Shown here in pieces: positions 4,872 to 31,638 of a stretch of 32,000 nucleotides of DNA. Source of the stretch: Candidatus Electrothrix sp. GW3-4. GTDB taxonomy: Bacteria; Desulfobacterota; Desulfobulbia; Desulfobulbales; Desulfobulbaceae. The stretch covers positions 600,001 through 632,000 of the forward strand of contig NZ_CP147990.1 of NCBI RefSeq assembly GCF_037902255.1, given 5' to 3'. The notes under the pieces are model-generated. The model was not told the origin of the DNA and ran no database searches. It saw only the letters and a list, made by a program, of their open reading frames with translations. Position numbers and translations under genes: made by a program. Position 1 is the stretch's first letter; each line of letters begins with the position of its first letter.

Positions 4872-4881
4872 TTTATATTAC

Positions 4882-16500: not shown

Positions 16501-18782
16501 GCTATGATGATAAGGGGAATATGCTTACCCTTTCTGGACCTCTTGGACTGTATAAGGAATGGGATTATAACGAAAAAAGTCTCGTAGAATCAAAGACAGA
16601 AAAGATTGATGAAAGCAAGAGCCGTACCTTTAACTACGAGTATGATGAGAACGGTAACCTTGTACAATTCTGTCTTCCGCTCGGAGACTGCGGAAATATT
16701 ACATACAATTCAAACGGACTTCCTGAGAAGCTTACCGACCTGAGAGGAAACAGCACCGTCAACAGCTATGACAGTGAGGGCGACCTTATCACTGTAACCG
16801 ATCCCGAAGGAGCAATTACCGCATTTGAGCATGACGGATTAGGCCGGATCACAGGTAAAACAAAGCCTCTCGGAAATTCTTACAGCTACACCTACGATGA
16901 AAATTCAAACCTCACAGCCGTAGACGGGCCGTTAGGTTTTCATATCGGTTATGAATATGATGTAAATAATAATCTCAGCAAGTCCGTTGATCCCAACGGC
17001 GGAGAGATCAAATATAGTTATACCCAGTCAGAAAGCATTAAAACCGTCACCAATCAGTTAGGCTTTGTCACTGCTTTTTCATACGGACTTATGAACGAGC
17101 GGACAGGGGTAACCGACCCCGAGGGCAGGGTTTGGACGTATACATATAACGATATGTTGAGGGTGACCGATGTAAACGGCCCACTCGGATACCACCAAGG
17201 CTTTGCATACAATGCCCTTGGACTGGTCACTGATTCCACAGATCCAGAAGGGAAAGTAAAGCATATTGAATATGATCCCTTGGGAAGACCGCTTGAAGTA
17301 ACCCAAAATTATGTTGCTGGGGGTGCTGAGGACTCGGATACCAATGTAAGCACTTCTTTTAGTTACGACCTGTTGGGCAACAGGCTTTCAGTTACTGACC
17401 CTGAAGGGTATGCGTTCAAGGCTGAATATGATCTGCAAGGCAGACTTGTAAAAAGGCAGGATGCAGAAAGCTTTGAGTGGGAATATTCTTATGATCCAAT
17501 GGGCAAACTTCTTGCCGAGCTGAACCCCAGAGGATACAGCACTGCCTACAGCTACACCCCTACAGGTCGGCTCCAGTCTATAGCCAATCCTGAACAGCAC
17601 ACCCAGACTTTTGCCTATAATGCCAACGGCTCTTTGCTTGAAATTAAAGACCCTAAGGGCATTCAGACCGCCTACAGCTACAACGAGCTTGACCGCAGAG
17701 TTTCCAAAATCAGAAATTACAAACCTGCTGTTAATCCTGATAATGAAACCAATGTAACCACCAAGTTTGAATATGATGTAGCGGGTAACCTGCGATTTGT
17801 AACCAACCCGCTCAATCATAAAGGCGAAATCAAATATGATTCCGCCCACCGTAAAACCGAGATAGTTGATTTTGAGGGCGGTAACACCACCCTTGAATAT
17901 GACAAGGTAAATAACCTTGTCAGGGTCACAGATGCTGAGGGTAATTCCACAGCCTACAGTGTTGATGAACTGGACCGGCTCGTTTCCGTCACCAATGCTG
18001 AAAATGAGACCGTGGGTTATACCTATGACCTCGTAGGCAACCGTACCCAGCTTATACAACCTGATGACACCGTTACTCTGTTTGAGTTTGACGGGGTATA
18101 CAGGCTTAATAGAGTTCACGAGAATTATCGCCCTGACCAGGAAGCGGGGAATGATGTAAATGCCCTTACAGCTTACAGCTATGACCGCAGGGGACTGCTC
18201 ACAGGCATAGTGAATGCCAACGGAGCCGAGACCCTGTTTGCTCATAACGGTGTAGGCAAGATGATTCAAGAGACCGATCCGCTCGGGATGGTCTGGCAGT
18301 ATGAATATGACGGCAACCGTAACCGCACATCTCGCAAAGATGCCAAAGGGGATCTGACTGAGTACGGATTTTTCCCTGATGATATGTTGCAAAGCATATC
18401 ATACTCAGACGGCAGCTCTGTTGCATATCAGTACGATCCGAACAATAACCGCACCAGTATGACCGATAAACTTGGTCATACCTCTTGGAGCTTTGATGCC
18501 CTGAACAGGGCAACCGAGCAGAACGATCCTTTTGACAGGGTTCTTGCCTACTCATACGATGCAGATTCAAACAGGGTAGGTATGACCTATCCTGACGGCA
18601 ACCAGGTCGCCTATGCGTACAGCCCTAACAGTTGGCTGAAAACAATGACTGACCCCGCAGGGCAGGAGATAAATTATTCTCGGGATCTGGTCGGCAATCT
18701 CACCCATATAGTTAACCCCAATCAGACTGAAACCGAAATTGCCTACGATAAGGTCTATCGTACCCTGAAACGGGTTAACTGA
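13545..18782 (+). CDS. Rhs/YD-repeat lipoprotein, N-terminal 1745 codons, ending at an in-frame TGA
   Basis: Signal peptide with lipobox LILTGC|SSDD. Two tandem ~125-aa beta-sandwich-like repeats sit at about 14367-14760 and 14778-15140. The Rhs shell entry is GHPVSTWNGNF...RGYNS. Dozens of YD repeats follow (Y.YD..G.L, e.g. YTYAGDQLTKISDG, YQYDDNKQLIEI). Confidence 0.9.
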   Translation: MRSVSSFVRSHGFSFSFSSFFIPPLLFLLILTGCSSDDIQIELTGKIDQGFSAGTKACLDISGNGKCDADEPSAQTTPDGTYTILIPAESFGDFPIVVESASTSSTSQEKAVQLSAPAGKHEFVSPVSTAVQSRVYQGSSLAEAEAEVRARYALPEDVDLYADYQGGSVQPETVQALIEAAEEIGEDLGIEVVEQADAAEDVAVSQRVGVRRASDASRASEASDSVSSSVTTIAATNNNDAEAVQGQSADEQVLVAADENAVTSEEAVASEAASCITKIKYAYELYGPQPEQPEFVEAGTAVTVKWRVYNDPEYNCDVEDLRLGFYKSTPGSETADYGDDDHPSFSLKSGEDKIIEANIVAAPGTEAIGTKFKVEFDVLKSDGTPLDPLVKGRLYTEFTIIPGVDPPEPQDCTAELTWSEPKFDAGELAKGESAKFLWFVTNTSTDCDAVDYHLGFKSAEPTSPTADYGGMGHEPFTLLRGESGMVQAIILAPKEEGTYKATFDIYTHKDELIPTPAGLENLYAEFKVTEKEPPPPVDPCAGVLAPTVQSVRLIQMGGGKVLVTADVPGDPDKLTVTLDLNGQEYTMSKLDSGAYGAMGEGKKTGKNDYTVSAGNGCNFHELVFVDGVLDSYNTGVCCQDAMMSCENLRKCGRNQFAAAKGHPVSTWNGNFAEMVTDGAVAGIGDADLFISRGYNSSAAFGDAASVYEYTESGREKVAGPPQYFGTGWSSNLDSYLLVMDYAPLYEGVQIRFPDGHTQNFEKSGDTYEPSTADNFDVLTKEGEDFLLERKHNLEIWHFGSDGRLLDIKDKNDNTVAYTYAGDQLTKISDGKRSIMFSYDAEGHITEASLPEGIVLSYEYNDDLLTGFTDGRGNRTAYQYDDNKQLIEIVTPLGHSSVQMSYDESYRVTSQTVGEDELYSFVYEGEDVAEATTITDSYGNATVQKHDEDGRQTEVIHPDGSTEKFEHDENSNRSYYQDPAGGEYRYSYDDKGNMLTLSGPLGLYKEWDYNEKSLVESKTEKIDESKSRTFNYEYDENGNLVQFCLPLGDCGNITYNSNGLPEKLTDLRGNSTVNSYDSEGDLITVTDPEGAITAFEHDGLGRITGKTKPLGNSYSYTYDENSNLTAVDGPLGFHIGYEYDVNNNLSKSVDPNGGEIKYSYTQSESIKTVTNQLGFVTAFSYGLMNERTGVTDPEGRVWTYTYNDMLRVTDVNGPLGYHQGFAYNALGLVTDSTDPEGKVKHIEYDPLGRPLEVTQNYVAGGAEDSDTNVSTSFSYDLLGNRLSVTDPEGYAFKAEYDLQGRLVKRQDAESFEWEYSYDPMGKLLAELNPRGYSTAYSYTPTGRLQSIANPEQHTQTFAYNANGSLLEIKDPKGIQTAYSYNELDRRVSKIRNYKPAVNPDNETNVTTKFEYDVAGNLRFVTNPLNHKGEIKYDSAHRKTEIVDFEGGNTTLEYDKVNNLVRVTDAEGNSTAYSVDELDRLVSVTNAENETVGYTYDLVGNRTQLIQPDDTVTLFEFDGVYRLNRVHENYRPDQEAGNDVNALTAYSYDRRGLLTGIVNANGAETLFAHNGVGKMIQETDPLGMVWQYEYDGNRNRTSRKDAKGDLTEYGFFPDDMLQSISYSDGSSVAYQYDPNNNRTSMTDKLGHTSWSFDALNRATEQNDPFDRVLAYSYDADSNRVGMTYPDGNQVAYAYSPNSWLKTMTDPAGQEINYSRDLVGNLTHIVNPNQTETEIAYDKVYRTLKRVN

Positions 18783-18935
18783 CAGACCACCCAGGGCGGA
18801 AAGGTCAACAGCGGGTTTGAATATACCTATAATGATCTAGGGCATATTACAAAAGCGGTCAAAGAATACGGCTGGCGCAAACCGTCCACCGTTACTGAGA
18901 CCTATGAGTACGACGGTCTGCATAGGCTTTCTTAT

Positions 18936-20609
18936 ATGAATATGTCCCCGCTCAAGAATAACGGCGGGACGATGGAAACCGCCTACAGTTATGATCCTGT
19001 GGGCAATCGTTTGAGCTGGGAAACTAACGACGACCTGCAAACAAACACCCCCTTTGATGCATTTTACCGAACCTATGAGTACAACCAAGCCAACCAAATG
19101 TTGGCTATGGAAAATGTCGCTGAAAAGAAGAATGACGACTATGCATACGAGTACAGCTTTGACCAGAACGGCAATAGGATAAACAGGCAGTTAATAGACC
19201 GAAACGGTCCCCAGTACGGAGTTGATTACAGCTATGACCCGGAAAACCGCCTTGTCCTGGCTCAGGATTACCAGATAGTAGGAGGGGGCAAGAAGAAAGA
19301 AGAACCCCACAGGATTGACCGAGCTTTCACCACTCTGGAGTATGACGGCGGCGGTCGGCGACTGGTGCAGCATTACGACCCCAAGCAGGGAGGCAATGGG
19401 GTTGATAAGCGGGATGAGTATGTGTTTGACGGGCTTGATCCGGTGGCTGAATACAATATGCTCAATGGTCAGAGAACCGATTATTACCGTGGAGCTGGTG
19501 GACACCTTGCCCTGATGCACCAGTTCAAGGGCGGTACTCAAGGGCAGATGTACTGGTACCATTACAACAACAAGGGCGATGTTGCGGGGCTGACCAAGCA
19601 TAACGGGAATTCACACCATAATTATAGATATGATCCATACGGGGCGGTTTTGCCTGAGAACGGTAATTTCACTGATCCGCATAACCATTATACCCTTACC
19701 GGTAAGGAGTTTGATGAGAATACCGGGCTGGTTTGGTTTGGGTCTCGGCATTATGAGCCTGAGACTGGGGTTTGGATGGGGCAGGATGTGTATCGTGGTG
19801 GGCTGAATAGTCCTATGAGTTTGCATAGGTATGGGTATGTGGTTAATAATCCTTTAACCTACTATGATTATTATGGGTATTATTGGGGGGAGAGCGTAGT
19901 TAATGGGGTTGTGGATGGTACAAAATCTGTAGCTGGAGCTGTAGGAAGTGGTATTGCATCTGGATATAATTCTACTAAAAAAGGTGTAATCGCTACTGCA
20001 AAAGCTGTAGATAAGTATGTAGTAGACCCTACGGCTGATTTTATAGGTAACTATGTGATAGAACCGACTGTAGAATATTTAGATAGAGCAACATCTGAAG
20101 AAAATTTAGTAGAAATGCCTGGGGTTCAACAGGGAGTAGCCACTCTTTTTTATGTAAATGCCTTATATTCTAACGTAAAAGAAACTCCTACCGATTTGAT
20201 ATTTGATGCAAATGACAATATGTCGGTCAATATTGAATCAAGTAGTCAGTACAAAAAAATGATAGCCGCTGAGGTTTCTATTGCAGAGCAAAAAGGAAAA
20301 AAATGTATTGATAAAACGTATTATGAGGAAGAATCTATAAATCTTAGAGGAGCAAATTTTTTAAACCAATACGCTATAGGAGGAACGAATCGCACTACTA
20401 TTAAAGGTGAAAAAATGGATAGTGGAGAATGGTCTATTGAGACAACAATAATTGATAAATATGATTTTCAAAAGAAAAGTCGAGAAAAGGAAGGCCTTGC
20501 TAAGACATTCATTAATAATTTTTTTGGATATTATCCTCAAGAATTTGGAATACTTGAAACGTATACAAATGAGTTTAATATAAAAAGTACAGTTTCGGCA
20601 GAAAATTAG
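18936..20609 (+). CDS. Rhs C-terminal segment: YD repeats, RHS-repeat-associated core and a polymorphic toxin tip
   Basis: It is in the same frame as 13545-18782. YD-repeat sequence is already readable from 18783 (QTTQGGKVNSGFEYTYNDLGHI..YEYDGLHRL). The core motif is FTGKEFDENTGLVWFGSRHYEPETGVWMGQD..RYGYVVNNPLTYYDYYG. Confidence 0.85.
   Translation: MNMSPLKNNGGTMETAYSYDPVGNRLSWETNDDLQTNTPFDAFYRTYEYNQANQMLAMENVAEKKNDDYAYEYSFDQNGNRINRQLIDRNGPQYGVDYSYDPENRLVLAQDYQIVGGGKKKEEPHRIDRAFTTLEYDGGGRRLVQHYDPKQGGNGVDKRDEYVFDGLDPVAEYNMLNGQRTDYYRGAGGHLALMHQFKGGTQGQMYWYHYNNKGDVAGLTKHNGNSHHNYRYDPYGAVLPENGNFTDPHNHYTLTGKEFDENTGLVWFGSRHYEPETGVWMGQDVYRGGLNSPMSLHRYGYVVNNPLTYYDYYGYYWGESVVNGVVDGTKSVAGAVGSGIASGYNSTKKGVIATAKAVDKYVVDPTADFIGNYVIEPTVEYLDRATSEENLVEMPGVQQGVATLFYVNALYSNVKETPTDLIFDANDNMSVNIESSSQYKKMIAAEVSIAEQKGKKCIDKTYYEEESINLRGANFLNQYAIGGTNRTTIKGEKMDSGEWSIETTIIDKYDFQKKSREKEGLAKTFINNFFGYYPQEFGILETYTNEFNIKSTVSAEN
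19880..20606 (+). other. Variable C-terminal toxin domain of the Rhs protein (~240 aa, AT-rich, family not recognised)
   Basis: It begins right after the NNPLTYYDYYG motif (a variant of the Rhs PxxxxDPxGL cleavage motif). Composition switches abruptly to AT-rich DNA. Confidence 0.6.
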
Positions 20610-20612
20610 ATC

Positions 20613-20878
20613 AAATAGGTCAGGCTGAAAGCCGTGTAGGTCCGCTTGAGTGCAACGAAAGCAGACGGTTCTTTACTCGGATTGTCTGATTTCGTTGTAC
20701 TCAATCAATACCTACGTGCCTGCGCAATGACGATAATGCACGGGCCAGGGTGATTATTCGGAATTCGGTAGGGGCGGATCCCCGTGTCCGCCCTGTTCAC
20801 CCGCCATCCCGGTATGTTCCAACAGGGCAGGCACAGGGGCCTGCCCCTACGAAACCACGGTGTACCCAATAATTCACC
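20613..20878 (+). repeat. Composite repeat U1: AATAGG prefix, 80-nt hairpin H (20636-20715), RAYT 5' fragment-a (20716-20762), REPIN (20768-20850), RAYT leader
   Basis: It can be aligned base-for-base by eye with 27830-28165 (U4, only scattered differences). Shorter alignments exist with 24950-25163 (U3) and with 21885-21923 plus 23322-23397 (U2, split by an IS). Confidence 0.85.
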
Positions 20879-21058
20879 ATGTCATACAACCCCGACATCC
20901 ACCACCGCCGTTCCATCCGTTTGTGCAATTACGATTATTCGCAGGCCGGGGCCTATTTCGTCACCATCTGCGTGCAGCACCGGGAATGTCTGTTCGGGGA
21001 AATAACCAATCGGGCCATGCGGTTGAATGATGCGGGAAACATTGCGGCACAATGTTGA
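20879..21058 (+). pseudogene. RAYT (REP-associated tyrosine transposase) 5' fragment, 59 codons
   Basis: MSYNPDIHHRRSIRLCNYDYSQAGAYFVTICVQHRECLFGEITNRAMRLNDAGNIAAQC* is collinear with residues 1-59 of the intact RAYT at 23564. Homology then ends. Confidence 0.85.
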
Positions 21059-21141
21059 GGGATCAACAGGGTGGGTCTTTCTTTTAAGAAAAAAGGGGCG
21101 TTATAAAAGGATATGTAAAGCGATAAACAGAGCTTGGGAGA

Positions 21142-21489
21142 TTATAACTCCAATTCTTTCATAATATTTTTCAGTTCATCCGTGCTGATATCATTCTTTG
21201 AAGATTTTGCATAAATCGTATGCAGTATTATTTCATTATCTTCCGAGTCATCGTGTACGGAATAAATCAGCCTGAAACCGCCTCGTTTCCCCTTTTTCTG
21301 GTCAGAAGAGGCAACCCGTGTTTTGTAAAGGATATTATCACAACCAGAGATAGAATCTCCTATCAATTCACCTGATGCCAGCCTGTTTAATATCGGCAGC
21401 AAATCTTTTTTAATCTGACGGTATTTTTTTGAGAGCCTTTTGATATTTTTTCCAAAAATTTCTGTTGTTTTAACGGTATAACTTTTCAT
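21142..21489 (-). CDS. Type II toxin, RelE/ParE superfamily (Gp49/HigB-like)
   Basis: 115 aa. The sequence ..KKGKRGGFRLIYSVHDD..EIILHTIYAKSSKNDIS is typical of RelE-fold toxins (GG(F/Y)R.IY ... I.L..IY.K). It starts 6 nt after the upstream antitoxin ORF. Confidence 0.75.
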   Translation of the reverse strand: MKSYTVKTTEIFGKNIKRLSKKYRQIKKDLLPILNRLASGELIGDSISGCDNILYKTRVASSDQKKGKRGGFRLIYSVHDDSEDNEIILHTIYAKSSKNDISTDELKNIMKELEL

Positions 21490-21495
21490 TTCCGC

Positions 21496-21756
21496 CTACA
21501 GTTCAGCAAGGACATCACTGGCAAGGCGAAGCTCTTTGTTTCCCTTCCGATATTCAACCATTTCTTGAAGAGATTTTTTTAAATTTCCTTTTATATCAAC
21601 TGATTTTTCCTGCTCAGTTTCTGGAACTTCCAGCCTTTCTAAAACATACTTTTTCAGAGACATACCGGAAAGCAAAGCTTTTGCTTTAATAGCTTTATGC
21701 TGTTTTGCTGGTATTTCAATCACAAGCCTTTTCATTTCTGGCATAGCTAGCTCCAT
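21496..21756 (-). CDS. Ribbon-helix-helix antitoxin partner
   Basis: 86 aa. KRLVIEIPAKQHKAIKAKALLSGMSLKKYVLERL has an RHH-like strand-helix-helix pattern. Its position immediately upstream of the toxin supports the call. Confidence 0.65.
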   Translation of the reverse strand: MELAMPEMKRLVIEIPAKQHKAIKAKALLSGMSLKKYVLERLEVPETEQEKSVDIKGNLKKSLQEMVEYRKGNKELRLASDVLAEL

Positions 21757-21884
21757 TTTTTTTGGTTAATAATAGCTTATTTAACTATAATCAATGAGCT
21801 GGGTCTTGTCCATACCTGTTTTCCTTCCGATACATGCCGAGCAACAGCCCGGAGCTGACCGCAAACAAAAAATTAATAGGGTCA

Positions 21885-21923
21885 GCCCGGATTGTCTGAT
21901 TTCGCTGTACTCAATCAAGACCT
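21885..21923 (+). repeat. Right arm only of hairpin H (copy U2), ending at the IS110 insertion point
   Basis: gcccggattgtctgatttcgctgtactcaatcaagacct matches H3 25012-25047. The left arm is deleted. The repeat resumes at 23320. Confidence 0.8.
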
Positions 21924-21925
21924 TG

Positions 21926-21931
21926 TATTAT
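21926..21931 (+). promoter_or_regulatory. -10 box (TATTAT) at the IS left end, half of the predicted circle-junction promoter
   Basis: In the joined RE-CT-LE sequence TTGACG-gggataacagtatcttg-TATTAT the spacer is exactly 17 nt. In the integrated state, no TTGACA-like hexamer lies at that distance. Confidence 0.5.
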
Positions 21932-21936
21932 GAAAT

Positions 21937-23103
<1,167 letters not shown>

Positions 23104-23300
23104 TACGCATAAACTAAACATACAACATATTGTTTTTCCATAGTCAGCTCTTTTGTCCGAGCCCCGCCGGAGGCGTTCCTCCGCGTCGCCGTTTTCAGGT
23201 TCAGCGCAGGAACGAAAAGCTGTCAGGGCTGCGAGCCCGAGCGAGCACCCGAAGGGCTCGGCCTTGACGGCTTCGAGGCCCGTGCTACACGAAAAAAGCC

Positions 23301-23306
23301 TTGACG
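23301..23306 (+). promoter_or_regulatory. -35 box (TTGACG) at the IS right end, other half of the predicted circle-junction promoter
   Basis: See 21926-21931. 13 nt of right end, the CT core and 2 nt of left end give a 17-nt spacer. Confidence 0.5.
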
Positions 23307-23321
23307 GGGATAACAGTATCT

Positions 23322-23563
23322 ACATGCCTGCGCAATAACGATAATGCACGGGCCGGGGTGATTATTCCGGTAGGGACACGGCATGCCGTGCCCTTACAAC
23401 GCCCCCCCATACCACATCGCATCAACCATGAAATACAACCCCGACATCCATCATCGTCGTTCCATCCGCCTGCGCAATTACGACTATGCACAGGCCGTAG
23501 GGACACGGCATGCCGTGCCCTTACAACGCCCCTACCTATCCAACCCCGTTCATGCTATCAACC
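23322..23563 (+). repeat. Continuation of U2: RAYT fragment-a, REP (23370-23397), duplicated RAYT leader plus first 23 codons (23428-23496), REP (23497-23524), leader of the intact gene
   Basis: gtagggacacggcatgccgtgcccttac occurs twice. MKYNPDIHHRRSIRLRNYDYAQA duplicates the start of the intact gene and is cut by the second REP right after caggcc. Confidence 0.85.
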
Positions 23564-24196
23564 ATGAAATACAACCCGGATATCCAGCACCGTCGTTCCA
23601 TCCGCCTGCGCGGTTACGATTATTCACAGGCCGGGGCCTATTTCGTCACGATCTGCGTGCATCATCGGGAATGTCTGTTCGGGGAAATCACCAACCGGAT
23701 CATGCGATTGAATGATGCGGGAAAAATCGCGGCACAATGCTGGCAGGATATCCCGGTGCATTTTTCCCATGCCGCCTTGGATGAATGGACGGTTATGCCC
23801 AATCATGTCCATGGAATTATCGTGATGGCCGATACCGCCGGTCGGCACACGGCATGTAGGGGCACGGCATGCCGTGCCCCTACACATCGTGCCCCGACGA
23901 AAGAACAATTCGGCAAACCGGTTTCCGGTTCCTTTCCCACCGTTGCCCGATCATTCAAATCTGCCGTCACCAAATACATCAACATTCTGCGCAACACGCC
24001 CGGTAACAAATTATGGCAACCCAATTACTGGGAACACATCATCCGCAACGAAACCGAATTGCACCGCATCCGCGAATACATCCATAATAACCCGGCCCGT
24101 TGGCGGGAAGACGCCCTGCATCCCGATCAGCCGCCGTTCCCCGGTGAAACCCGTGAACCCTCCCCGCCCTACGGCCATGAGGCGTGGATGTTGTAG
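23564..24196 (+). CDS. REP-associated tyrosine transposase (RAYT; IS200-like Y1/HUH transposase)
   Basis: MKYNPDIQHRRSIRLRGYDYSQAGAYFVTIC..., the HUH motif MPNHVHGIIV, and the catalytic-Tyr region LWQPNYWEHIIRNE..L.RIREYIHNNPARW. The start is set at 23564, because the track's 23510 start is just translation of the REP. Confidence 0.9.
   Translation: MKYNPDIQHRRSIRLRGYDYSQAGAYFVTICVHHRECLFGEITNRIMRLNDAGKIAAQCWQDIPVHFSHAALDEWTVMPNHVHGIIVMADTAGRHTACRGTACRAPTHRAPTKEQFGKPVSGSFPTVARSFKSAVTKYINILRNTPGNKLWQPNYWEHIIRNETELHRIREYIHNNPARWREDALHPDQPPFPGETREPSPPYGHEAWML
23856..23883. repeat. 28-bp perfect REP palindrome inside the RAYT coding sequence
   Basis: GTAGGGGCACGGCATGCCGTGCCCCTAC is read in frame as ..CRGTACRAPT... 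It lies between the HUH motif and the catalytic Tyr. Confidence 0.9.
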
Positions 24197-24290
24197 GGAC
24201 ACGGCATGCCGTGTCCCTACCGGATTACCCATTGCCGTTCCATCCATCTGCACAATTATGGTTATTCACAGGCCGGGGACTGTTCACTGT
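24193..24290 (+). repeat. REP (24193-24220) overlapping the RAYT stop codon, then another RAYT 5' fragment
   Basis: In gtagggacacggcatgccgtgtccctac, the TAG stop at 24194-24196 is part of the GTAG. After it, ..ccgttccatccatctgcacaattatggttattcacaggccgggg is homologous to RAYT codons ~10-25. Confidence 0.8.
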
Positions 24291-24301
24291 TGATTCTTAT
24301 G

Positions 24302-24349
24302 TTGACAGAAATTTTAAAAAGTATACAATATATACGACGTATACTTTTT
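24302..24349 (+). promoter_or_regulatory. Predicted sigma70 promoter and operator of the RHH/ParE operon
   Basis: TTGACA (24302-07), 16 nt, TACAAT (24324-29). The 11-bp inverted repeat aaaaagtatac/gtatacttttt (24316-26 / 24339-49) overlaps the -10 box. Confidence 0.45.
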
Positions 24350-24370
24350 AATTTTATGGAGCTAACTACT

Positions 24371-24652
24371 ATGGCTACTGTTCCGTTTTCTCTAAGGATT
24401 GATCCAAGCACCAAGGCACTGCTTGAACAGGAAGCGAAAAGAGGTGACCGAACACCTTCCTACCTTGCCAACAAAGCAATCAAGAATTTCCTGCAGGCTA
24501 GAACAGCGAAAAGAAAGGCTATTAACGAGGCAATCAAGAAGGCTGATAAGGGAGCATTCGTTTCTGAAGAGGCGGTCGATGCTTGGGTTGATTCATGGGG
24601 AACTGAAAATGAACTTCCTGTACCTGAACCGGATATATTCCCTGATACCTAA
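24371..24652 (+). CDS. CopG/ParD-like ribbon-helix-helix antitoxin
   Basis: MATVPFSLRIDPSTKALLEQEAKRGDRTPSYLANKAIKNFL is a classic RHH N-terminus. A GGAG lies 9 nt upstream. The upstream part of the track ORF is REP/RAYT-fragment translation. Confidence 0.8.
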   Translation: MATVPFSLRIDPSTKALLEQEAKRGDRTPSYLANKAIKNFLQARTAKRKAINEAIKKADKGAFVSEEAVDAWVDSWGTENELPVPEPDIFPDT

Positions 24653-24658
24653 TAAATT

Positions 24659-24943
24659 ATGCAGGTAAAATTTTTAGCAAGCTCGTTAAATGATTTAAAA
24701 TGGTTCAGGTATTACTATGAGAGTGTTTTTCCTCAAGGACTGGAAAAAGCGCAAAAACAATTTCATAGCACAAAAGGTTTAATAAAAGAGAGTCCATACA
24801 TCGGGCACGTTATCCAAGATAATAATATCTTGGAGTTTTCTATACCAAACATACCGTTTTCTTTTATCTACCGAATTAAAGGCGAAGTAATTGAAATTTT
24901 AAGGGTGTGGGACGAAAGGCAGGATAGAGCAAGGTTGAGTTGA
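24659..24943 (+). CDS. parE: ParE/RelE family toxin
   Basis: 94 aa. ..L..YY......GLEKA.K.........L.E.PYIG......N.LEFSI...PFSFIYRIKGEVIEILRVWDERQD is the ParE C-terminal signature. Confidence 0.8.
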   Translation: MQVKFLASSLNDLKWFRYYYESVFPQGLEKAQKQFHSTKGLIKESPYIGHVIQDNNILEFSIPNIPFSFIYRIKGEVIEILRVWDERQDRARLS

Positions 24944-24949
24944 GAGGGA

Positions 24950-25163
24950 AAATAGCAAATCAATAGCCGTGTAGGTCCGCTAGAGTGCAACAAAAGCAGG
25001 CGGTTCTTTGCCCGGATTGTCTGATTTCGTTGTACTCAATCAAGACCTACATGCCTGCGTAATGACGATAATGCACGGGCCGGGGTGATTATTCGGTAGG
25101 GGCACGGCGCGCCGTGCCCCTACAACCCGGACATCGTAGGGGCGGTTCGCGAACCGCCCTTAC
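24950..25163 (+). repeat. Composite repeat U3: hairpin H (24971-25050), RAYT fragment-a, REP (25096-25123), 12-nt RAYT remnant aacccggacatc, REP variant (25136-25163)
   Basis: Direct alignment with U1 and U4. The REPs are gtaggggcacggcgcgccgtgcccctac and gtaggggcggttcgcgaaccgcccttac. Confidence 0.85.
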
Positions 25164-25225
25164 ACCACCCCCTTTTCTTATTTGCTCCCTCCAGTCACCA
25201 TCCACATACAGAGCTGGTACGTTAC

Positions 25226-25254
25226 TTGACAAATGTAACCTGCGGGGTTACGAT
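25226..25254 (+). promoter_or_regulatory. Possible higBA promoter with palindromic operator
   Basis: TTGACA (25226-31), 17 nt, TACGAT. The palindrome gtaacc-tgcgg-ggttac (25235-25251) lies in the spacer. The ATG at 25262 would make the mRNA nearly leaderless. Confidence 0.3.
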
Positions 25255-25516
25255 ATATCGCATGATCAAGTCATTCAAACATAAGGGACTGGAAAAATTT
25301 TTCTATTCTGGAAAGAAGAAAGGAATTCGCCCGGAACAAGCAATCTCAAGATTGCCAGGATTCTAGATCGATTAAACGCTGCTGAAAATATTAAAGATAT
25401 GAATTATCCCGGTTCATTTCTTCATCAGTTGAGCGGTACGTTGAAAGGGCAATACTCGGTTCGTGTTTCAGGGAATTGGCGTATATTTTTTGAATTTAGA
25501 GATGGTGACGCATATA

Positions 25517-27448
25517 TCTCCCCATTCGCTCATTTGAAATAGAGTATTTTTAATTTTCAAGACCATAATAAACAAATGTATCCAACTCTAGCCTTTGTAT
25601 TATTTCTATTTGTAAATTCGACAATGGTTTTAGTGAGCGAACAACAACATTCCTTGCTTGATCAAAAATAATGGTGAGATTAATTCTTGAAAAAGCCTTC
25701 AGAATCCTCTCTGCGGACGGTTTATCAGTAATTTTTTTTCGGTTCTCAGGATGCATACCAGACAGCCCGGTTTTTTCTTCCTTCAATGAACGCCGAACAA
25801 CAAACTCTATCAACGTCATAACCCTGACACACAAGGTCAACAAGTAGGTCATACCTTGAATTTGATCGTCTTTTCGAACAAATAACGGAGCGATATTGAG
25901 TCGACTTTTTAGTCTTCCGAAAATGCATTCAACCCGATATTCATTTCGGTATGACAGTACAGCATCGTGCAATGACAGTTTATCCGCAGCGAGCTCAGTC
26001 ACAAATGCTTTCCAGCCAAACCGAGTGCTTTGCTCTGCAATGGCCTCTTGGTTCTTTTCAATAGAGGTGATTTGATAACGGACTGTTTCGACAGTGACTT
26101 TTTCTCTATTGGCTGCCCCCTGCCTCTGCCAACATATTTTGTTTTCTGCTCGATCTGTTTTTCGTATTGAATGTTCAGTAACCCATCAACCCTTTGAGCT
26201 TCTGTTATTTTAGTGACAGCCGCAAGCAGTTCTGCTTCATCGCTTATCTGACGCCTGCCTCGCCCTCGCGGAGGAGTCAATGCTTCAATTTTTTCTTGGG
26301 CTTTTACCAGTCGAGCCTCAAGTCCCGCAGTTTGTTGCCTGGCATGGGCAGGGGAATGGACAACCAAAACACGTTCATCCCATTCCATTTTTTCGACGTC
26401 TTTTTCAAAAACCTGAGTACGATTAAACTCATAGCCTTTAGCTGCAAAAATCAATTCGCCCTTATAATTTTCTCTGAAAACAGAGACCAAATCATCTTCT
26501 TGATCTTTGGCAATACCTGTATTAATCCAATCAGTTATTTCATGAGAAGTTTTACCGGTCAACGGCAAGGGGCACAAATAGTGCTGCCTGGAAGAGACCA
26601 AGTAAGCCCGAGTCTCCAATGCACTCATTTTGCAATCACCTGAGAACAATAATCCGGATTTTTCAAGGCTCTCATTGACCCGGGCTATCAAGGGAATATA
26701 GAGACCGTCGTCTGCCTTTTCACCGGAAACAACATCAGAAGCCAATGGCATTCCCAGAGGATCCAGAGCAGCACTCATCAATTTTATTTGTGGTAACTTG
26801 GCATTGTCTTTGCTGTGACCGAATTGTACCAATCCATCTTCCGTGATTTCTTGATCTGCAGAAACTGTAGTTGCATCACATCGGATTGTTTCCGGCTCCA
26901 GATTATATACCTCTATCGTCTGTTGATTGAGATCCGCTTCTATCTTTGACCAGCATGTGTTATTGCTTAAATGTCTGAGAAGATGGGCCAAACGGTCATC
27001 ACTGAAATCTAGTGGCACTACCGGCTGATCCGCCAAAAAGCTCAATGTGTGTTGCATTTCCTGGACATACTCACTCATCGAGACTTTGCGATGATCCCCT
27101 TCAGTTATGATATGGGCCATCCATATGACGGTGGTCCATCCCCAGCTGAGTTGTCTCTGATTTCCATGTTGAGGAATATGCCTGTCGATGATTTCCCGAA
27201 GGCCCATCCTGATCATTTGTGCTATAAGCAGAGGGATATCATCCACTCGCTCTGTGATGATTTGAAGTTTGTCTTTGTCGAAAACGCCTTGCTCTTCTGA
27301 TGTCAAATTCGCTATCATTTCAGTGTCATTTATGATTATAGAAAAAGGAGTTTCAACTCAATCTCATACCAAAATAGGGTCTGTTTGAAATTTTACAAGC
27401 CCGATTCAGAATTAATTTTTCCAAATTTAAAATGAGCGAATGGGGAGA
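25517..27448 (-). mobile_element. IS4-superfamily (IS1634-like) insertion sequence, 1932 bp, 19-bp perfect terminal inverted repeats
   Basis: IR tctccccattcgctcattt at 25517-25535, and its reverse complement at 27430-27448. Flanking TATA on both sides is an apparent 4-bp duplication, ambiguous because the site is palindromic. Confidence 0.85.
25550..27318 (-). pseudogene. IS1634/IS4-family DDE transposase split into 439-aa and 150-aa ORFs by a frameshift
   Basis: DUF4277-like N-terminus (VDDIPLLIAQMIRMGL..IID), GHSKDNAKLPQIK.. and a C-terminal YRNEYRVECIFGRLKS block. Shifting the frame at the C5 run 26116-26120 restores ..GRGRG-AANREKVTVETVRYQITSIEKNQEAIAEQSTRFGWKAFVTELAADKLS. Confidence 0.8.
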
Positions 27449-27489
27449 TATATCGTCAATTATGCCGATTATCATTGAGAGGTAATGTC

Positions 27490-27804
27490 ATGGATAAAGT
27501 AAAAAGAAAACCAACCCATCCGGGTACTATTTTAAAGGAAGATTATCTTGTTCCTTTAAAGATCAGTGTTACGGAAATGGCCGAGAAATTGGGAGTTTCC
27601 CGTAAGACACTTTCCAGGATATTAAATGAAAAGAGTTCAATCACCCCTGATATGGCCCTGCGATTGGCATGGGCATTTGATACCACACCGAAGTTATGGC
27701 TCAATCTTCAGCAAAATATTGACCTGTGGAATGCGGAACATGCATCGACAGGTTGGAAACGCGTCAGGCAGCTTCCTTTTCAAGTTCTTCATCCTGCCTT
27801 ATGA
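27490..27804 (+). CDS. higA: HigA family antitoxin (XRE-type HTH)
   Basis: THPGTILKEDYLVPLKISVTEMAEKLGVSRKTLSRILNEKSSITPDMALRLAWAFDTTPKLWLNLQQNIDLW is the canonical HigA sequence. Confidence 0.9.
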   Translation: MDKVKRKPTHPGTILKEDYLVPLKISVTEMAEKLGVSRKTLSRILNEKSSITPDMALRLAWAFDTTPKLWLNLQQNIDLWNAEHASTGWKRVRQLPFQVLHPAL

Positions 27805-27829
27805 CATTGAACCCGCAGCTGTGGAAATA

Positions 27830-28165
27830 GGGAAATAGGGGACGTAGCCGGGTAGGTCCGCTTGAGTGCAACGAAAGCAGACGGTTCTTTGCCCGGATTG
27901 TCTGATTTCGTTGTACTCAATCAAGCCCTATGTGTCTGCGCAATGACGATAATGCACAGGCCGGGGTGATTATTCGGCATTCGGCATTCGGCAGGGGGCG
28001 GATCCCCGTGTCCGCCCTGTTCATCCGCCATCCCGGTATGTTCCAACAGGGCAGGCACAGGGGCCTGCCCCTACGAATCCACGGTGTATCCAATAATTCG
28101 CCATGTCATACAACCCGGACATCCAACACCGCCGTTCCATCCGCCTGCGACGTTACGATTTGCAC
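27830..28165 (+). repeat. Composite repeat U4: hairpin H (27852-27931), fragment-a, (cattcgg)x3 microrepeat, REPIN (27991-28074), RAYT leader plus ~21 codons (ATG 28103)
   Basis: It aligns with U1 over about 320 bp. MSYNPDIQHRRSIRLRRYD.. then diverges into the relB promoter region. Confidence 0.85.
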
Positions 28166-28223
28166 AGGATCATTGATATGCAGCCTTGCCAGCGTGTTGC
28201 ACATGTGCTACGCTAAAGCTACT

Positions 28224-28481
28224 ATGAAAACTGCAACCATACATGCTCGCATTGAGCCGGACACCAAAGAGAAAGCCGAAAAGGTTCTCCGAAAACTCGG
28301 ACTTACTCCCACCGAGGCAATACGCATATTCTACCGCCAAATTTGCCTCGGTAACGGACTGCCTTTCCCTGTCGAAATCCCGAACAGGCGTACTGCCGAA
28401 ACTCTGGAAAAGAGCCAACGAGGCGAGGAAGTGGAGGAGTTTGACAGCCTTGACGATATGTTTGACACTTGGCCCTTATGA
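28224..28481 (+). CDS. dinJ: RelB/DinJ family antitoxin
   Basis: MKTATIHARIEPDTKEKAEKVLRKLGLTPTEAIRIFYRQICLGNGLPFPVEIPN matches the DinJ/RelB consensus. The upstream part of the track ORF is repeat translation. Confidence 0.88.
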   Translation: MKTATIHARIEPDTKEKAEKVLRKLGLTPTEAIRIFYRQICLGNGLPFPVEIPNRRTAETLEKSQRGEEVEEFDSLDDMFDTWPL

Positions 28482-28750
28482 GAAAAGTTTCTCAGACGCG
28501 CCAGTTTTCAAGGGATTTGAAACGAGTCGCCAAGCGGGGAAAGAATCTGGATAAGCTCAAACGGGTTGTGACTCTCCTTGCAAAGGACCAACCGCTTGAA
28601 CCGAGGCACAGAGATCACGCCCTGACTGGAAACTGGAAGCATTCTCGTGACTGCCATATCGAACCGGATTGGCTTCTGATTTACACTTTGGGTGACGAGT
28701 CGTTGCGCTTGGAGAGAACAGGCACACATAGCGATCTGTTTAAGAAATAG
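28478..28750 (+). CDS. yafQ: YafQ family mRNA-interferase toxin
   Basis: ..F.RDLKR..KRGK.L.KL..V...L....PL....RDHALTGNWKHSRDCHIEPDWLLIY......L.LERTGTHSDLF. There is an ATGA start/stop overlap with dinJ. Confidence 0.9.
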   Translation: MRKVSQTRQFSRDLKRVAKRGKNLDKLKRVVTLLAKDQPLEPRHRDHALTGNWKHSRDCHIEPDWLLIYTLGDESLRLERTGTHSDLFKK

Positions 28751-28845
28751 GATTTTCCAGCATTCTCCCCCCCTTTCTCTCCTGCCATCCAGTCGGCTTC
28801 AACCAAGGCAGCCGCCTGCCCCGATAATCTGTGGTGCATAACGTT

Positions 28846-29003
28846 GTAAGGGCACGGCATGCCGTGCCCTTACAATAACCGCCCTTACTCGCCCGCGCCT
28901 CTACGGAATAACGACGGAAACACAGGGTTTCGTCAACAAACGCCCATGCCCTGCAACCCGGATATCCATTATCATTGTTCCATTCATTTGTCACAATGGC
29001 CGA
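28846..29003 (+). repeat. REP palindrome (28846-28873) plus degenerate RAYT leader/5' fragment (about 28935-29003)
   Basis: gtaagggcacggcatgccgtgcccttac is followed by ..atgccctgcaacccggatatccattatcattgttccattcatttgtcacaatggccgattattca (MPCNPDIHYHCSIHL..). The fragment ends exactly at the yoeB stop. Confidence 0.75.
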
Positions 29004-29270
29004 TTATTCATAATGTGACCACATCCTGAGAATATGCACGACATGTTGATCTGGATCAACGGAATACACCAGTCGATGCTGAATGTTTATCCGGCGTGAA
29101 TAAAACCCGTTGAGATTACCCACCAATTTTTTGTATGCCGGATAGCGGATAAAAGGATCCTCCTGCAGAAGCTGTAAGAGGCGTTCCGCTTTTGAACGCA
29201 GCCCAGCACGGCGTAGCTTTTTTGCATCCTTGACGGCCTGGGTCGATAAAATAACCTTCCATTTCACCAC
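29004..29270 (-). CDS. yoeB: Txe/YoeB family toxin
   Basis: ..L.GNLNGFYSRRINIQHRLVYSVDPDQHVVHILRMWSHYE carries the YoeB signature (L.G..SRRI...HRLVY.V). Confidence 0.9.
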   Translation of the reverse strand: MVKWKVILSTQAVKDAKKLRRAGLRSKAERLLQLLQEDPFIRYPAYKKLVGNLNGFYSRRINIQHRLVYSVDPDQHVVHILRMWSHYE

Positions 29271-29515
29271 TCAAGATCCTCAAGCGATGTTCCGTCCTCA
29301 AGCGGTTCGCGGGCCGCTTCCTGAATACTCTCCGCCATGCCGGGAATTTGGTTGAGGTACACTGTTTCCGCCATTGCATGCCAGTCTTCTTCACCAAGCA
29401 CGATGAAATTTTCTCCGTTGCGTCGGGTAACCCGTAATACCTCATGATTTTCAATGCACCGGTCAACTTCCGGCTTTAAATGCTGCCGAAAACGGTTCGC
29501 TGTTGTTTCTCTCAT
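29264..29515 (-). CDS. yefM: Phd/YefM family antitoxin
   Basis: MRETTANRFRQHLKPEVDRCIENHEVLRVTRRNGENFIVLGEEDWHAMAETVYLNQIPGMAESI. It overlaps the yoeB start by 7 nt. The start is at 29515 (GGAGG RBS), not the track's 29629. Confidence 0.88.
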   Translation of the reverse strand: MRETTANRFRQHLKPEVDRCIENHEVLRVTRRNGENFIVLGEEDWHAMAETVYLNQIPGMAESIQEAAREPLEDGTSLEDLEW

Positions 29516-29541
29516 AGCTTTTGCCTCCAATCTGAAATGAA

Positions 29542-29586
29542 AAAGCAGTATTGCTTTACAGTACTGCTTTGGGTGAAATTTGTCAA
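29542..29586 (-). promoter_or_regulatory. Predicted yefM-yoeB promoter and operator
   Basis: On the minus strand: TTGACA (29586-81), 17 nt, TACTGT. The 9-bp inverted repeat aaagcagta/tactgcttt (29542-50 / 29562-70) overlaps the -10 box. Confidence 0.4.
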
Positions 29587-29615
29587 GAAAGCGCGAAAAA
29601 GGGGACAGATTTATT

Positions 29616-30591
29616 GTGCGGCCGGGCAAGGTCGTGTAATCAAGCGGGTGTAAAGCCCGTCCCGGAAGGTTGGCCAGCCACCGGGTAGCAAGTCTTTGGA
29701 GGCTCTATGGTAACATAATGTTTTAAGCGTAAGATAGCGAGCAGATAGGCCGTAAGTCAGAGGTTGAAGGGATTGAGCCCCGTAATTGTCGCGTTGGGAA
29801 GGACGACACTGATATGTACGCAGAAAATCTGGACGCCAATCTGAAAGATTTGATAGATCGGCTGCACCGGATGGCGTACATACCGCAACCTGTCCGGCGT
29901 AAATATATACCAAAGCCGGGCAGCACCAAACAGCGTCCCTTGGGGATACCGTGCTTTGAAGACAAGCTTGTTCAGGCCGGGCTCGTCCAGATAATGGAAG
30001 CGGTGTACGAACAGGATTTTATCGAAAATTCGTATGGATTCCGGCCGTCACGAAGCTGCCATGACGCGCTCAGAGGTTTGGTAGATTCGCCGTTCAGAAT
30101 GCCGTGAGAAGGGGGAAAAGGGCAGAGACGTTTGATTTTCTGGGCTTTACTCACTACTGCGGCACGAGGAGGGACGGTACAGGGTTTCGGATGAAGCGGG
30201 TAACCGCCCGTAAGAAGTTTGTCGCCAAGGTGAAGATCTTTAAGGAATGGTTGAAGAAAGCCAGGATTTTAAAGACTGGGAAACTTTGGGCGATCGCCAA
30301 GGCCAAATTGAGAGGTCATTATAACTACTACGGTGTAACCGATAACCTGGTTGGAATCGCAAGATTTTTCGAGGCGGTAAAGAGGCTGCTGTTTAAGTGG
30401 CTGAACCGTAGAGGAAAGAGGAACTGTATCAATTGGGAAAAGTTCAATAAAATGCTGAAGCGATTTCCTCTTCCGAAACCACGGATTAGGGTCAGTATGT
30501 TCGGGACACCGTGAATTGACTATGTGAGGAGCCGCGTGCGGCGGGGCGTAGTCTGAGACCTTTTATTGGGCTGTTTGGAGAAACCGGTCTA
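29616..30591 (+). mobile_element. Degenerate group II intron remnant (approximate boundaries)
   Basis: GTGCG at 29616-20. It contains an RT/maturase ORF missing its N-terminus and its central RT domains. Only ~200 nt lie upstream of the ORF, too short for domains I-III. I could not fold a canonical domain V in 30515-30591. Confidence 0.6.
29814..30514 (+). pseudogene. Group II intron reverse transcriptase/maturase with an internal deletion and frame change
   Basis: The N-terminal part YIPQPVRRKYIPKPGSTKQRPLGIPCFEDKLVQAGLVQIMEAVYEQDFIENSYGFRPSRSCHDAL covers RT domains 1-2. The sequence then jumps to FDFLGFTHYCG...LRGHYNYYGVTDN (RT7/X maturase). The YADD catalytic block is absent. Confidence 0.8.
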
Positions 30592-30867: not shown

Positions 30868-31638
30868 ATGAGTGAAACACCGGCCAAGGTGGTGGCTATT
30901 ATTCCGGCTCGCTACCATTCCAACCGTTTTGAAGGAAAACCGCTGGCGCTGATAGCAGGTAAGCCCATGATCCAGCATGTGGTGGAGCGGGCCTGGCAGG
31001 CCAAACTGCTCTCCCGGGTTGTGGTGGCAACAGATGATGAACGGATAGCTGAGGCCGTTACCGGCTTTGGTGGTGAGGTGGTGCTGACTCGGTCCGATCA
31101 TGTCTCGGGCACGGATCGGCTGGCTGAAGCGGCTGAGCTGCTCCATATTGAAGAGCATAGTGTGGTGGTGAATATCCAGGGCGATCAGCCTCTGTTTCCC
31201 CCTGAGGTCATTGACCAGGTTGCGGGCCCCCTGCTGGAGGACCCGGCCCTGCCCATGTCCACCCTGATCTATAAGATTATCAGGCCGGAAGAGATCACGG
31301 ACCCGAATCATGTCAAGACCGTGTTTGATTGTGAGAGCAATGCCCTCTATTTTTCCCGCTCACCGGTTCCTTTTCAGCGCAACCCAGAGGAGGAGGTCCA
31401 GCCGACCTATTATAAACATCTCGGCTTTTATGCCTATCGCAAGGGTTTTCTCCTGACCTTTGTGGCCCTGCCGGAAGGGGAGTGGGAGCGCTTTGAAAAG
31501 CTGGAACAACTTCGGGCCTTGGAATACGGCTACCGGGTTCGGGTGGTCTTGACCGAGCATGACTCCATCGAGGTGGACACCCCCAAGGATGCCCAGCGGG
31601 TACAGGGGATGATCCAGAGCAGCAAGGTGAGCTTGTAG
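30868..31638 (+). CDS. kdsB: 3-deoxy-manno-octulosonate cytidylyltransferase (CMP-KDO synthetase)
   Basis: VVAIIPARYHSNRFEGKPLALIAGKPMIQHVVERA...VVVATDDERI...TRSDH.SGTDRLAEA...VVNIQGDQPL. I prefer the ATG at 30868 over the TTG at 30847. Confidence 0.9.
   Translation: MSETPAKVVAIIPARYHSNRFEGKPLALIAGKPMIQHVVERAWQAKLLSRVVVATDDERIAEAVTGFGGEVVLTRSDHVSGTDRLAEAAELLHIEEHSVVVNIQGDQPLFPPEVIDQVAGPLLEDPALPMSTLIYKIIRPEEITDPNHVKTVFDCESNALYFSRSPVPFQRNPEEEVQPTYYKHLGFYAYRKGFLLTFVALPEGEWERFEKLEQLRALEYGYRVRVVLTEHDSIEVDTPKDAQRVQGMIQSSKVSL

Follow-up and report, generated by a model that had tools for sequence, protein, structure and literature searches.

The 32,000-nt stretch of DNA analysed here (the window; positions 600,001 to 632,000 of contig NZ_CP147990.1 from Candidatus Electrothrix sp. 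GW3-4) carries an array of toxin–antitoxin (TA) cassettes, which is a chromosomal hotspot between an rhs gene and kdsB in a genome of the Candidatus Electrothrix (cable bacterium) type. Between positions 20613 and 29615, five type II TA operons of five families are set between directly oriented mosaics of one composite repeat, here called U, which is made of pieces of a locus for a REP-associated tyrosine transposase (RAYT) together with its repetitive extragenic palindromes (REPs). It seems to represent a form of cassette array that spans the genus and had not been described before, with TA operons carried on a RAYT/REP-derived scaffold anchored at rhs; in the literature on cable bacteria and TA systems or integrons, and on RAYTs or REP doublets (REPINs) and TA systems, no description of such arrays was found. 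In the reading we favour, to which we assign a probability of roughly 55%, cassettes would be gained, lost and shuffled by homologous recombination between the U repeats, with TA addiction biasing which of them are retained.

The composite repeat, which an earlier note on this DNA had described from the letters of the sequence, was recovered both by a direct-repeat search and with blastn. U opens with a prefix, (AAATC)AATAGG(G)TCAGCC, which is followed by an 80-nt hairpin (H) and then by core*, a segment that corresponds to RAYT nt 43-85 in diverged form. Next comes a REPIN or a single REP, the latter a GTAG palindrome that is perfect over 28 nt; the RAYT leader and the first codons of the gene close the unit. 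The repeats measure 0.1-0.45 kb. H folds into an outer 6-7-bp stem, GTAGGT(C)/(G)ACCTAC, an internal loop, an inner stem of ~21 bp with one mismatch and a 15-nt loop, with DNA fold z-scores of -2.0 to -5.2, and its core 30-mer occurs four times in the window against zero expected. Among 19 copies from at least eight genomes the mean pairwise identity of H is 94.6%, loop and internal-loop bases included, and covariation is uninformative because the copies are too similar. By blast identities H is conserved about as well as the REPIN, and its foot, GTAGG...CCTAC, recurs in the REPs. Every unit is on the + strand of the window. U1 and U4, said earlier to align with scattered differences, are indeed 90% identical over 315 nt, but the claim that the same unit separates every operon holds only in part: one composite repeat does recur in direct orientation, yet as mosaics, U3 being devoid of the RAYT 5' end and U5 of H (Table 1). 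The left arm of H in U2 was lost by a microhomology deletion at GCCGGG/GCCCGG.

An exact 24-mer of H was detected in nine stretches among 185,579 species genomes, all of them from Electrothrix/Desulfobulbaceae and usually with two to three copies 1-2.7 kb apart. A metagenome scan for H yielded four short contigs only, and the complete 4.08-Mb chromosome of E. laxa holds two exact matches to the H core, both within one array. Through these 24-mer matches and exact TA proteins we obtained a set of related loci, cited below by L numbers. The same grammar in a single orientation is found in the window and in at least ten loci from at least eight Candidatus Electrothrix/Desulfobulbaceae assemblies, and comparison of these assemblies shows the array grammar to be conserved genus-wide. 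The cassettes are exclusively TA or TA-like and represent at least 17 types, namely HigBA (three kinds), ParDE-like (four), RelE, YefM/YoeB (two), DinJ/YafQ, MazEF, VapBC (several kinds), HEPN/MNT, Gp49/HTH and DUF2442; insertion sequence (IS) elements, RAYT genes and an intron are the sole non-TA content. The earlier note had asked what adjoins U units elsewhere: in Electrothrix genomes U or H always stands beside TA cassettes or rhs 3' ends. The rhs 3' end is directly adjoined by H or the U prefix in the window, L004, L006, L009, L013 (where the U prefix and REPIN2 come next) and L015.

Comparison of the rhs-kdsB interval with relatives, also proposed earlier, revealed differences in both set and order, by whole units of cassette plus U. 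Locus L013, on a 2.69-Mb contig of GCA_032595675.1, has the same rhs-array-kdsB-ldh-cofD order and nine cassettes (HigBA, YoeB/YefM, DinJ/YafQ, ParDE, RHH/RelE, Phd/YoeB-2, VapBC, HEPN/MNT and RHH/ParE, RHH denoting ribbon-helix-helix), in an order unlike that of the window (TA1, ParDE, HigBA, DinJ/YafQ, YoeB/YefM). L015 reads rhs-U1-TA1-U2-ParDE, without the IS110 element and the full RAYT unit of the window. The array of L007/L014 lies beside fbp and runs HigBA-ParDE-RHH/RelE-Gp49/HTH-Phd/YoeB-2-MazEF-DinJ; the unit of Gp49/HTH plus H-core* between RHH/RelE and Phd/YoeB-2 is present in L007 and absent from L013.

The cassettes also differ in age. Between the window and L013, third-codon divergence is 25.5% for kdsB, 20.5-22.9% for YoeB and YefM, 10.6-13.3% for HigA, DinJ and YafQ, 2.2% for the ParD-like antitoxin and 0% for ParE; in nucleotide identity the corresponding extremes are 100% for ParE, 99.3% for its antitoxin and 88.8% for kdsB. 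Copies of TA1 with 99.8-99.9% identity are present in L008 and L010, which represent two different species in GTDB. The unequal divergences show that cassettes were exchanged one by one, at different times, between species, and, by the same measure, individual cassettes are shown to be far younger than the genomes that host them.

Table 1 Features of the TA array and its borders (positions in the 32,000-nt window)
Feature	Position	Strand	Composition or evidence
Rhs gene	13545..20609	+	Two open reading frames (ORFs), 13545-18782 and 18936-20609; RHS_repeat Pfam match; left array anchor
U1	20613..21058	+	Prefix AAATAGG, H 20636-20715, core* 20717-20762, REPIN 20768-20851, RAYT leader and codons 1-60 (ATG 20879)
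TA cassette 1 (TA1)	21142..21756	-	ParD-family antitoxin 21496-21756 (PF09386, E=1.5e-11); RelE/ParE-superfamily toxin 21142-21489 (PF06296, E=1.4e-5)
U2, left part	21871..21923	+	Prefix AATAGGGTCAGCC and right arm of H only
IS110-family element	21924..23313	+	Transposase 22132-23103; NCBIfam transpos_IS110 NF033542, 246.7 bits (cut-off 140); splits U2
U2, right part	23314..23563	+	H foot and core* 23314-23367, palindromic REP 23370-23397, leader and RAYT 5' end 23398-23496 ('empty' unit, ends at RAYT nt 70), second REP 23497-23524, leader
Full-length RAYT gene	23564..24196	+	HUH (HVH) and Tyr (YWEH) motifs; NCBIfam REP_Tyr_transpos, E=3.9e-17
REP over RAYT stop codon, then RAYT 5' fragment	24193..24284	+	Fragment of nt 13-79 adjoining ParDE; same junction in L007 and L013
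TA cassette 2 (ParDE)	24285..24949	+	RelB-like RHH antitoxin 24356-24652; ParE toxin 24659-24943; Pfam, NCBIfam
U3	24950..25171	+	Duplicated prefix (AAATAGCAAATCAATAGCC), H 24971-25050, core*, REPs 25096-25123 and 25136-25163; without leader and RAYT 5' end
TA cassette 3 (HigBA)	25203..27825	+	HigB 25262-25517; HigA 27490-27804; Pfam HigB-like_toxin, HTH_3
IS1634-family element	25518..27447	-	1930 bp within higB; NCBIfam transpos_IS1634, 177.5 bits
U4	27826..28168	+	Duplicated prefix, H 27852-27931, core* 27932-27975, REPIN ~27983-28076, leader and RAYT 5' end to nt 67
TA cassette 4	28169..28750	+	RelB/DinJ antitoxin 28224-28481 (RelB, E=3.7e-14); YafQ toxin 28469-28750 (YafQ_toxin, E=6e-36)
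U5	28748..29003	+	Prefix AAATAGG, without H, REP 28846-28873, diverged leader and RAYT 5' end to ~nt 63
TA cassette 5	29004..29615	-	YoeB 29004-29270; YefM 29264-29518; promoter region; Pfam and NCBIfam matches
Degenerate group II intron, broken reverse transcriptase (RT) ORF	29616..30590 (end approximate)	+	Rfam RF02005, 51.3 bits; RVT_1 and group_II_RT_mat matches; right array edge
kdsB	30868..31638	+	Pfam CTP_transf_3; right array anchor

The five operons of five families read earlier from the sequence were borne out by Pfam for all five. Every pair consists of small, adjacent or overlapping genes that combine a known toxin family with a DNA-binding antitoxin, as type II TA systems do, and in one of them, HigBA, the toxin gene is inactivated: the family was correctly named, but higB is a pseudogene with a frameshift near 25340, relative to the intact copy of L007, and is cut by the IS1634-family element. 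The best sigma-70-like sites of the region lie immediately upstream of ParDE (11/12; TTGACA-16-TACAAT), HigBA (10/12) and TA1 (10/12), and palindromes overlapping these three promoters are seen in the sequence, so that the promoter and palindromic operator proposed for each operon are supported for these three. The stop codon of the cassette 4 YafQ gene falls in the AAATAGG prefix of U5.

U represents the 5' side of a RAYT/REP locus (H, core*, REP, leader and RAYT 5' end), in agreement with the origin first suggested for it. To that description we add a full RAYT gene and an 'empty' RAYT 5' unit between U2 and ParDE. The RAYT gene product scored 62.5 bits against NCBIfam NF047646, below the cut-off of 80, its alignment falling into two stretches around a REP-encoded insert, and the Pfam Y1_Tnp match was weak. 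This insert is due to a perfect 28-nt GTAG REP at 23856-23883, placed in frame between the HUH and Tyr motifs and encoding ...GTACRAPT...; the RAYT of E. aarhusensis (L004; 205-aa ORF at 3494-4111), whose gene is 80% identical in nucleotides to that of the window, has a similar REP-encoded peptide, RRGTARRAPTCRAPT. REPs are inserted at RAYT nt 70, at nt 293 and at the stop codon, and the gene is flanked by GTAG-headed palindromes (REPs at 23370, 23497 and 24193; REPINs in U1 and U4). The second REP of the REPIN (GGGCAGGC...GCCTGCCCCTAC) was also observed as single copies at 9427-9452 and 12182-12206, on either side of secA. The GTAG REP family thus seems to be dispersed in the genome, unlike H, which is low-copy and confined to arrays (and rhs ends) and for that reason does not qualify as a typical REPIN.

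Each cassette type (ParDE, RHH/RelE, DinJ, TA1, HigBA) has its own junction pair, conserved across genomes: in ParDE, ...GGCCGGGGA is joined to CTGTTCACTG, in RHH/RelE, ...GGCCGG to ACCAGACAGG, and in TA1, RAYT nt 179 to AGGGATCAAC. The left joint of a cassette is situated at, or slightly before, the -35 box and the right joint within a few nucleotides of the stop codon, which is sometimes the TAG of the AATAG prefix; that prefix, on the left side of the repeat units, occurs at 13 of ~18 junctions. Breakpoints had been placed at the YDYSQAG codons of the RAYT gene. This is true of four of the five truncation points in the window (nt 70, 79, 67 and 63), but not of U1 (nt 179), nor of the wider set of loci, in which they extend over nt 45-179. 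Many of the variants are simple microhomology deletions. Half-H forms result from them at GCCGGG/GCCCGG and at CAGCCGG/CAGACGG; L005 has H fused, at TCAG, into a RelE gene and, at another place, to a DinJ promoter remnant; and L015 has lost H-core* at AAT. A variant in L007 has H joined to RAYT nt 17, from which the common joint of H to core* (nt 43-47) is derivable as a CTG-microhomology deletion. Gp49 is preceded by H-core* in L007 and by leader-RAYT 5'-core in L005 and L011, an instance of core/core* recombination, and the end points of flank matches around shared cassettes are scattered over H, core*, REPs and the RAYT 5' end. The conservation of cassette-specific junctions argues for rare illegitimate capture followed by shuffling through the repeats, and not for a recurrent site-specific reaction. 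REP-bounded modules were also considered as the exchange unit and set aside: end points often coincide with REP edges, which is uninformative because non-orthologous U mosaics force module edges.

We propose that TA operons are captured rarely, via illegitimate joins into a U unit, and that the U repeats, at their length of 0.1-0.45 kb, would then serve as portable homology for RecA-type recombination. Recombination between them could loop out circles of U plus cassette that re-insert at any other U, delete or duplicate units, and integrate cassettes from other Electrothrix genomes. Ordinary genes placed between direct repeats would be lost quickly; TA modules penalise their own deletion, so that only TA cassettes and recent IS insertions would survive, and repeated deletions would trim the cassettes to the interval from promoter to stop codon. 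Such events may be promoted by RAYT nicking of the GTAG hairpins, meaning the REPs and perhaps H. Recombination combined with retention would account for the TA-only content, the unit-wise polymorphism and the differing ages of cassettes, as well as for the cassette-specific junctions, the microhomology scars and the H-less units. The earlier note had offered two alternatives, cassette accretion driven by a RAYT or by homologous recombination, and a TA-stabilised hotspot; accretion by homologous recombination, joined with TA-stabilised retention, fits best, and nothing shows RAYT catalysis.

Several points weigh against this proposal. Homologous recombination cannot create the first joints, and the first joints are placed non-randomly: the 20 independent points at which the RAYT is truncated are all confined to nt 45-179 of a gene of 633 nt (P ~1e-11 if uniform), 11 of them to nt 45-79 (P ~1e-9 if uniform), and nearly all cassette 3' ends meet the same ~25 nt (AAATCAATAGGGTCAGCC) before H. 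The conservation of H goes beyond what a patch of homology needs and suggests a recognised site. Analysis of switch points is noisy because all U units are alike, and neither excision circles nor recombination intermediates were seen. From the non-random junctions and the conserved H, an activity of the RAYT, or another one that recognises hairpins, is conceivable at least for the making of breaks.

A larger part for this enzyme is envisaged if the cassettes are mobilised by the RAYT itself, a reading we regard as unlikely. In such an HUH-type, single-strand mechanism, H and the GTAG REPs would be subterminal hairpins recognised by the array-encoded RAYT, which would cut beside them and move or copy TA modules, or U, into a preferred site in the RAYT 5' end, thus forming an integron analogue from a domesticated IS200-like transposase. 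That full RAYT genes lie inside two arrays, in L004 and in the window, and that L005 opens with the 3' end of a RAYT is consistent with this, as are the foot that H shares with the REPs and its REPIN-like conservation, the co-orientation of all units, expected from a strand-specific single-stranded DNA (ssDNA) mechanism, the strong clustering of junctions (RAYT nt 45-79; the AATAG prefix before H) and the REPs that are themselves inserted in the RAYT gene. Yet the right-hand junctions, scattered over nt 45-179, have no fixed nucleotide and differ from one cassette type to another, H-less units border several cassettes (U5 of the window; the right half of the L013 array), the joint of H to core* is explained by the CTG-microhomology deletion of the L007 joint, and H is low-copy, as on the E. 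laxa chromosome, unlike a RAYT-amplified REPIN. To our knowledge RAYTs do not move passenger genes. They have been described as single-copy and domesticated (PMC5581495). We are slightly more sceptical of the specific proposition that H, the palindromic RAYT core (nt 43-70) and the GTAG REPs together form the recombination site of a cassette system unknown until now, in which a domesticated HUH transposase, the RAYT, would capture and shuffle TA or defence cassettes tagged with hairpins on ssDNA. Such a system would be the integron's functional counterpart, assembled from quite other components and kept throughout the genus of cable bacteria.

Very improbable, in our judgement, is a degenerate integron array, that is, a cluster of attC sites lacking an integrase (CALIN) or a sedentary chromosomal integron with intI outside the window, with H as attC. 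The likeness is real as far as behaviour goes: H copies are 0.8-2.9 kb apart, repeats and cassettes alternate as in integrons, and H has a superficially attC-like fold whose inner pair, GTGCAAC...GTTGTAC, agrees with the R''/R' consensus at 6/7 positions. Two kinds of element known to target attC, group II introns and members of the IS110 family, are present here. Chromosomal integrons typically include TA cassettes that bring their own promoters (e.g. PMC3856429, PMC8191803). Membership, however, does not follow. The absence of an integron integrase, remarked upon earlier, extends to the whole 32-kb window, in which no tyrosine recombinase was found, and to the called genes of the 20-kb L013 locus (rhs to cofD, the entire array); no complementary RYYYAAC...GTTRRRY pair 45-160 nt apart exists in 20600-29620 (0 found, 0.6 expected in shuffles), where the outer stem of H reads GTAGGTC/GACCTAC; and the IS110 target is the CCT^AC foot common to ordinary REPINs, not a feature of attC. 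The inner pair was discarded as a set of R boxes because conservation and the repeat run well past it: all H copies are conserved for 25 nt beyond the inner GTT, to GACCTACGTGC, and most continue into core*, REP and RAYT 5' sequence, which places the cassette boundaries elsewhere than at G^TT. We give the least credence of all to an exchange of modules by host Xer recombinases at dif-like sites within U, in the manner of the pdif modules of Acinetobacter plasmids. Many pdif modules are TA modules, and the array resembles them as a set of modular TA units without a recombinase of their own; the RAYT core (nt 43-66), where many junctions cluster, has two imperfectly inverted arms, CTGCGCAAT / ATTCGCAG, separated by a 7-nt spacer. 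Against this, the best match to the E. coli dif and Acinetobacter pdif arms was 14/22, under the shuffled mean of 14.6-14.7 (the native Electrothrix dif may differ), the junctions are found at or beyond the edge of the core and not in its central spacer, varying by tens of nucleotides, and pdif modules are bounded by inverted sites, while the array units are all direct. The idea that a tyrosine recombinase acts at the core palindrome, at whose left arm core* would begin exactly, is undermined by the joint of H to RAYT nt 17 in L007.

The array has partial counterparts among several known systems. With sedentary chromosomal integrons and CALINs, such as the Vibrio cholerae superintegron, it has in common compact, co-oriented units in which cassettes alternate with a homogeneous hairpin repeat, TA cassettes with their own promoters, some of them inverted, content and order that vary among relatives, and stop codons that overlap the start of the repeat; unlike them, it has no IntI, no attC R''/R' boxes and no fixed G^TT boundary, its repeat of 0.1-0.45 kb is composed of RAYT fragments and REPs, its cassettes are 100% TA, and its junctions are cassette-specific and bear microhomology scars. 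Like REPIN/RAYT systems, it includes a RAYT with HUH and Tyr motifs, flanking GTAG palindromes and REPINs, REP singletons elsewhere and, in H, the GTAGG/CCTAC foot, but in those systems the RAYT is normally single-copy and has no passengers, whereas here the spacers between TA operons are 5' pieces of the RAYT locus, reiterated dozens of times, and H, low-copy and restricted to arrays and rhs ends, does not behave as their repeats do. The Acinetobacter pdif (Xer) modules are likewise discrete, often TA, and shuffled from replicon to replicon without a module-encoded recombinase; the array differs from them by its chromosomal location and its direct and not inverted units, and comparison with E. 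coli dif and Acinetobacter pdif revealed no dif-like 28-mers in it. Its position directly after rhs, the conserved-gene fragment before each module, which offers homology for swapping, and the proposed exchange between strains by homologous recombination in conserved flanks recall the orphan toxin/immunity arrays that follow rhs/cdi genes and the minimal mobile elements of Neisseria, although a RAYT gene, not rhs, supplies the reiterated fragment, and type II TA operons of the classical kind take the place of Rhs-CT/immunity pairs. With IS200/IS605-family elements and their non-autonomous derivatives, the palindrome-associated transposable elements (PATEs), it shares an HUH Y1 enzyme, hairpins near the unit ends, strict co-orientation and the absence of target duplication. 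It departs from them in that only the left end is roughly constant, the right ends being spread over RAYT nt 45-179, no fixed cleavage or target tetranucleotide is demonstrated, and H is much larger than the hairpins of their left and right ends.

Few architectures are known to assemble and reshuffle small cassettes, chiefly integrons and Xer/pdif modules, and how chromosomal TA systems move and why they accumulate is a long-standing question. The array offers dated evidence of cassette-by-cassette exchange between species. If repeat recombination suffices, it would be a natural example of portable homology and TA addiction building an 'integron without an integrase'; if the RAYT or H is catalytically involved, this would be the first cargo-handling function for RAYTs. 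The array is also a rapidly evolving locus beside rhs in cable bacteria, whose multicellular filaments and exposure to phage pressure make the turnover of TA and abortive-infection systems relevant.

Two further readings of the repeat were dismissed. H was tried as an intrinsic terminator: its apical stem was flagged in three copies, but the terminator total equals the shuffled expectation and the T-tract is weak. AAATAGG, taken as a terminal inverted repeat of CCTATTT (RAYT nt 74-80), is a 7-nt match only, and most units are without CCTATTT. No plasmid match to U was found in PLSDB by blastn. Rfam, in which attC has no family of its own, was searched at gathering thresholds and at E<=10 and returned the group II intron, the tRNA and meaningless sub-threshold hairpin matches of microRNA-like type, with no known RNA family for U or H. 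Short modules are reiterated in and around the arrays, among them module P, GGAAATAGGGGACGTAGC(ACGTTT), which is joined to RAYT nt 6, nt 57 or H, and a C-rich motif, CCCCYTTTCT...TCCAGTC. Such modules stand at 27826-27851, 25165-25200 and 28765-28795 in the window, at 2382 and 2990 in L005 and at 8246, 13140 and 14318 in L013; a RAYT-like leader of a second type, accompanied by a REP of its own, is likewise present in L005 and L013.

IS110 elements are characterised by a transposase with DEDD and Transposase_20 domains, the absence of terminal inverted repeats and a short core duplicated at a specific target. The element at 21924-23313 agrees with this in its NCBIfam score and in its target: it interrupts H at the CCT^AC foot, where CT is duplicated, and in L015 the same U2 is intact. 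In E. laxa (L005, ~3127-4540) a 79%-identical copy occupies the CCCCT^AC foot of an ordinary REPIN. With CT duplicated at CCT^AC in two independent targets, this element, which belongs to an RNA-guided family, seems to be directed at the 3' foot of hairpins of the GTAG type. A 5-nt TGTAT remnant is present at the same position of H in L010. In the IS1634-family element the transposase is broken into ORFs of 439 and 150 aa; the ends are terminal inverted repeats of 18 bp, flanked by a duplication of the 6-bp target ATATAT.

At the left border, the rhs gene, in two ORFs in the window, is a single ORF of 2605 aa in L015, where a c-di-GMP-I riboswitch (53.6 bits) is located just upstream; none was detected at threshold in the window. 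There is no immunity-like gene between the Rhs C-terminus and the first repeat unit. At the right border, the group II intron starts with GTGCG at 29616, matches domains D1-D4 in Rfam at 29652-29880 and retains RT ORF pieces of 97 and 136 aa. It is bracketed by a 27-nt inverted repeat, 89% complementary (29589-29615 / 30642-30668), and looks as if it were inserted within a long terminator-like hairpin at the array edge. The remainder of the window is ordinary chromosome, with secA, pdxA, tmk, a PilZ gene, a GNAT gene and a tRNA. Positions 2000-5000 have 35% GC, compared with ~50% elsewhere, and include a 408-aa ORF (2505-3731) that gave no Pfam or NCBIfam match and adjoins a tRNA gene on the minus strand (4885-4958); this low-GC stretch may be a small integrated island.

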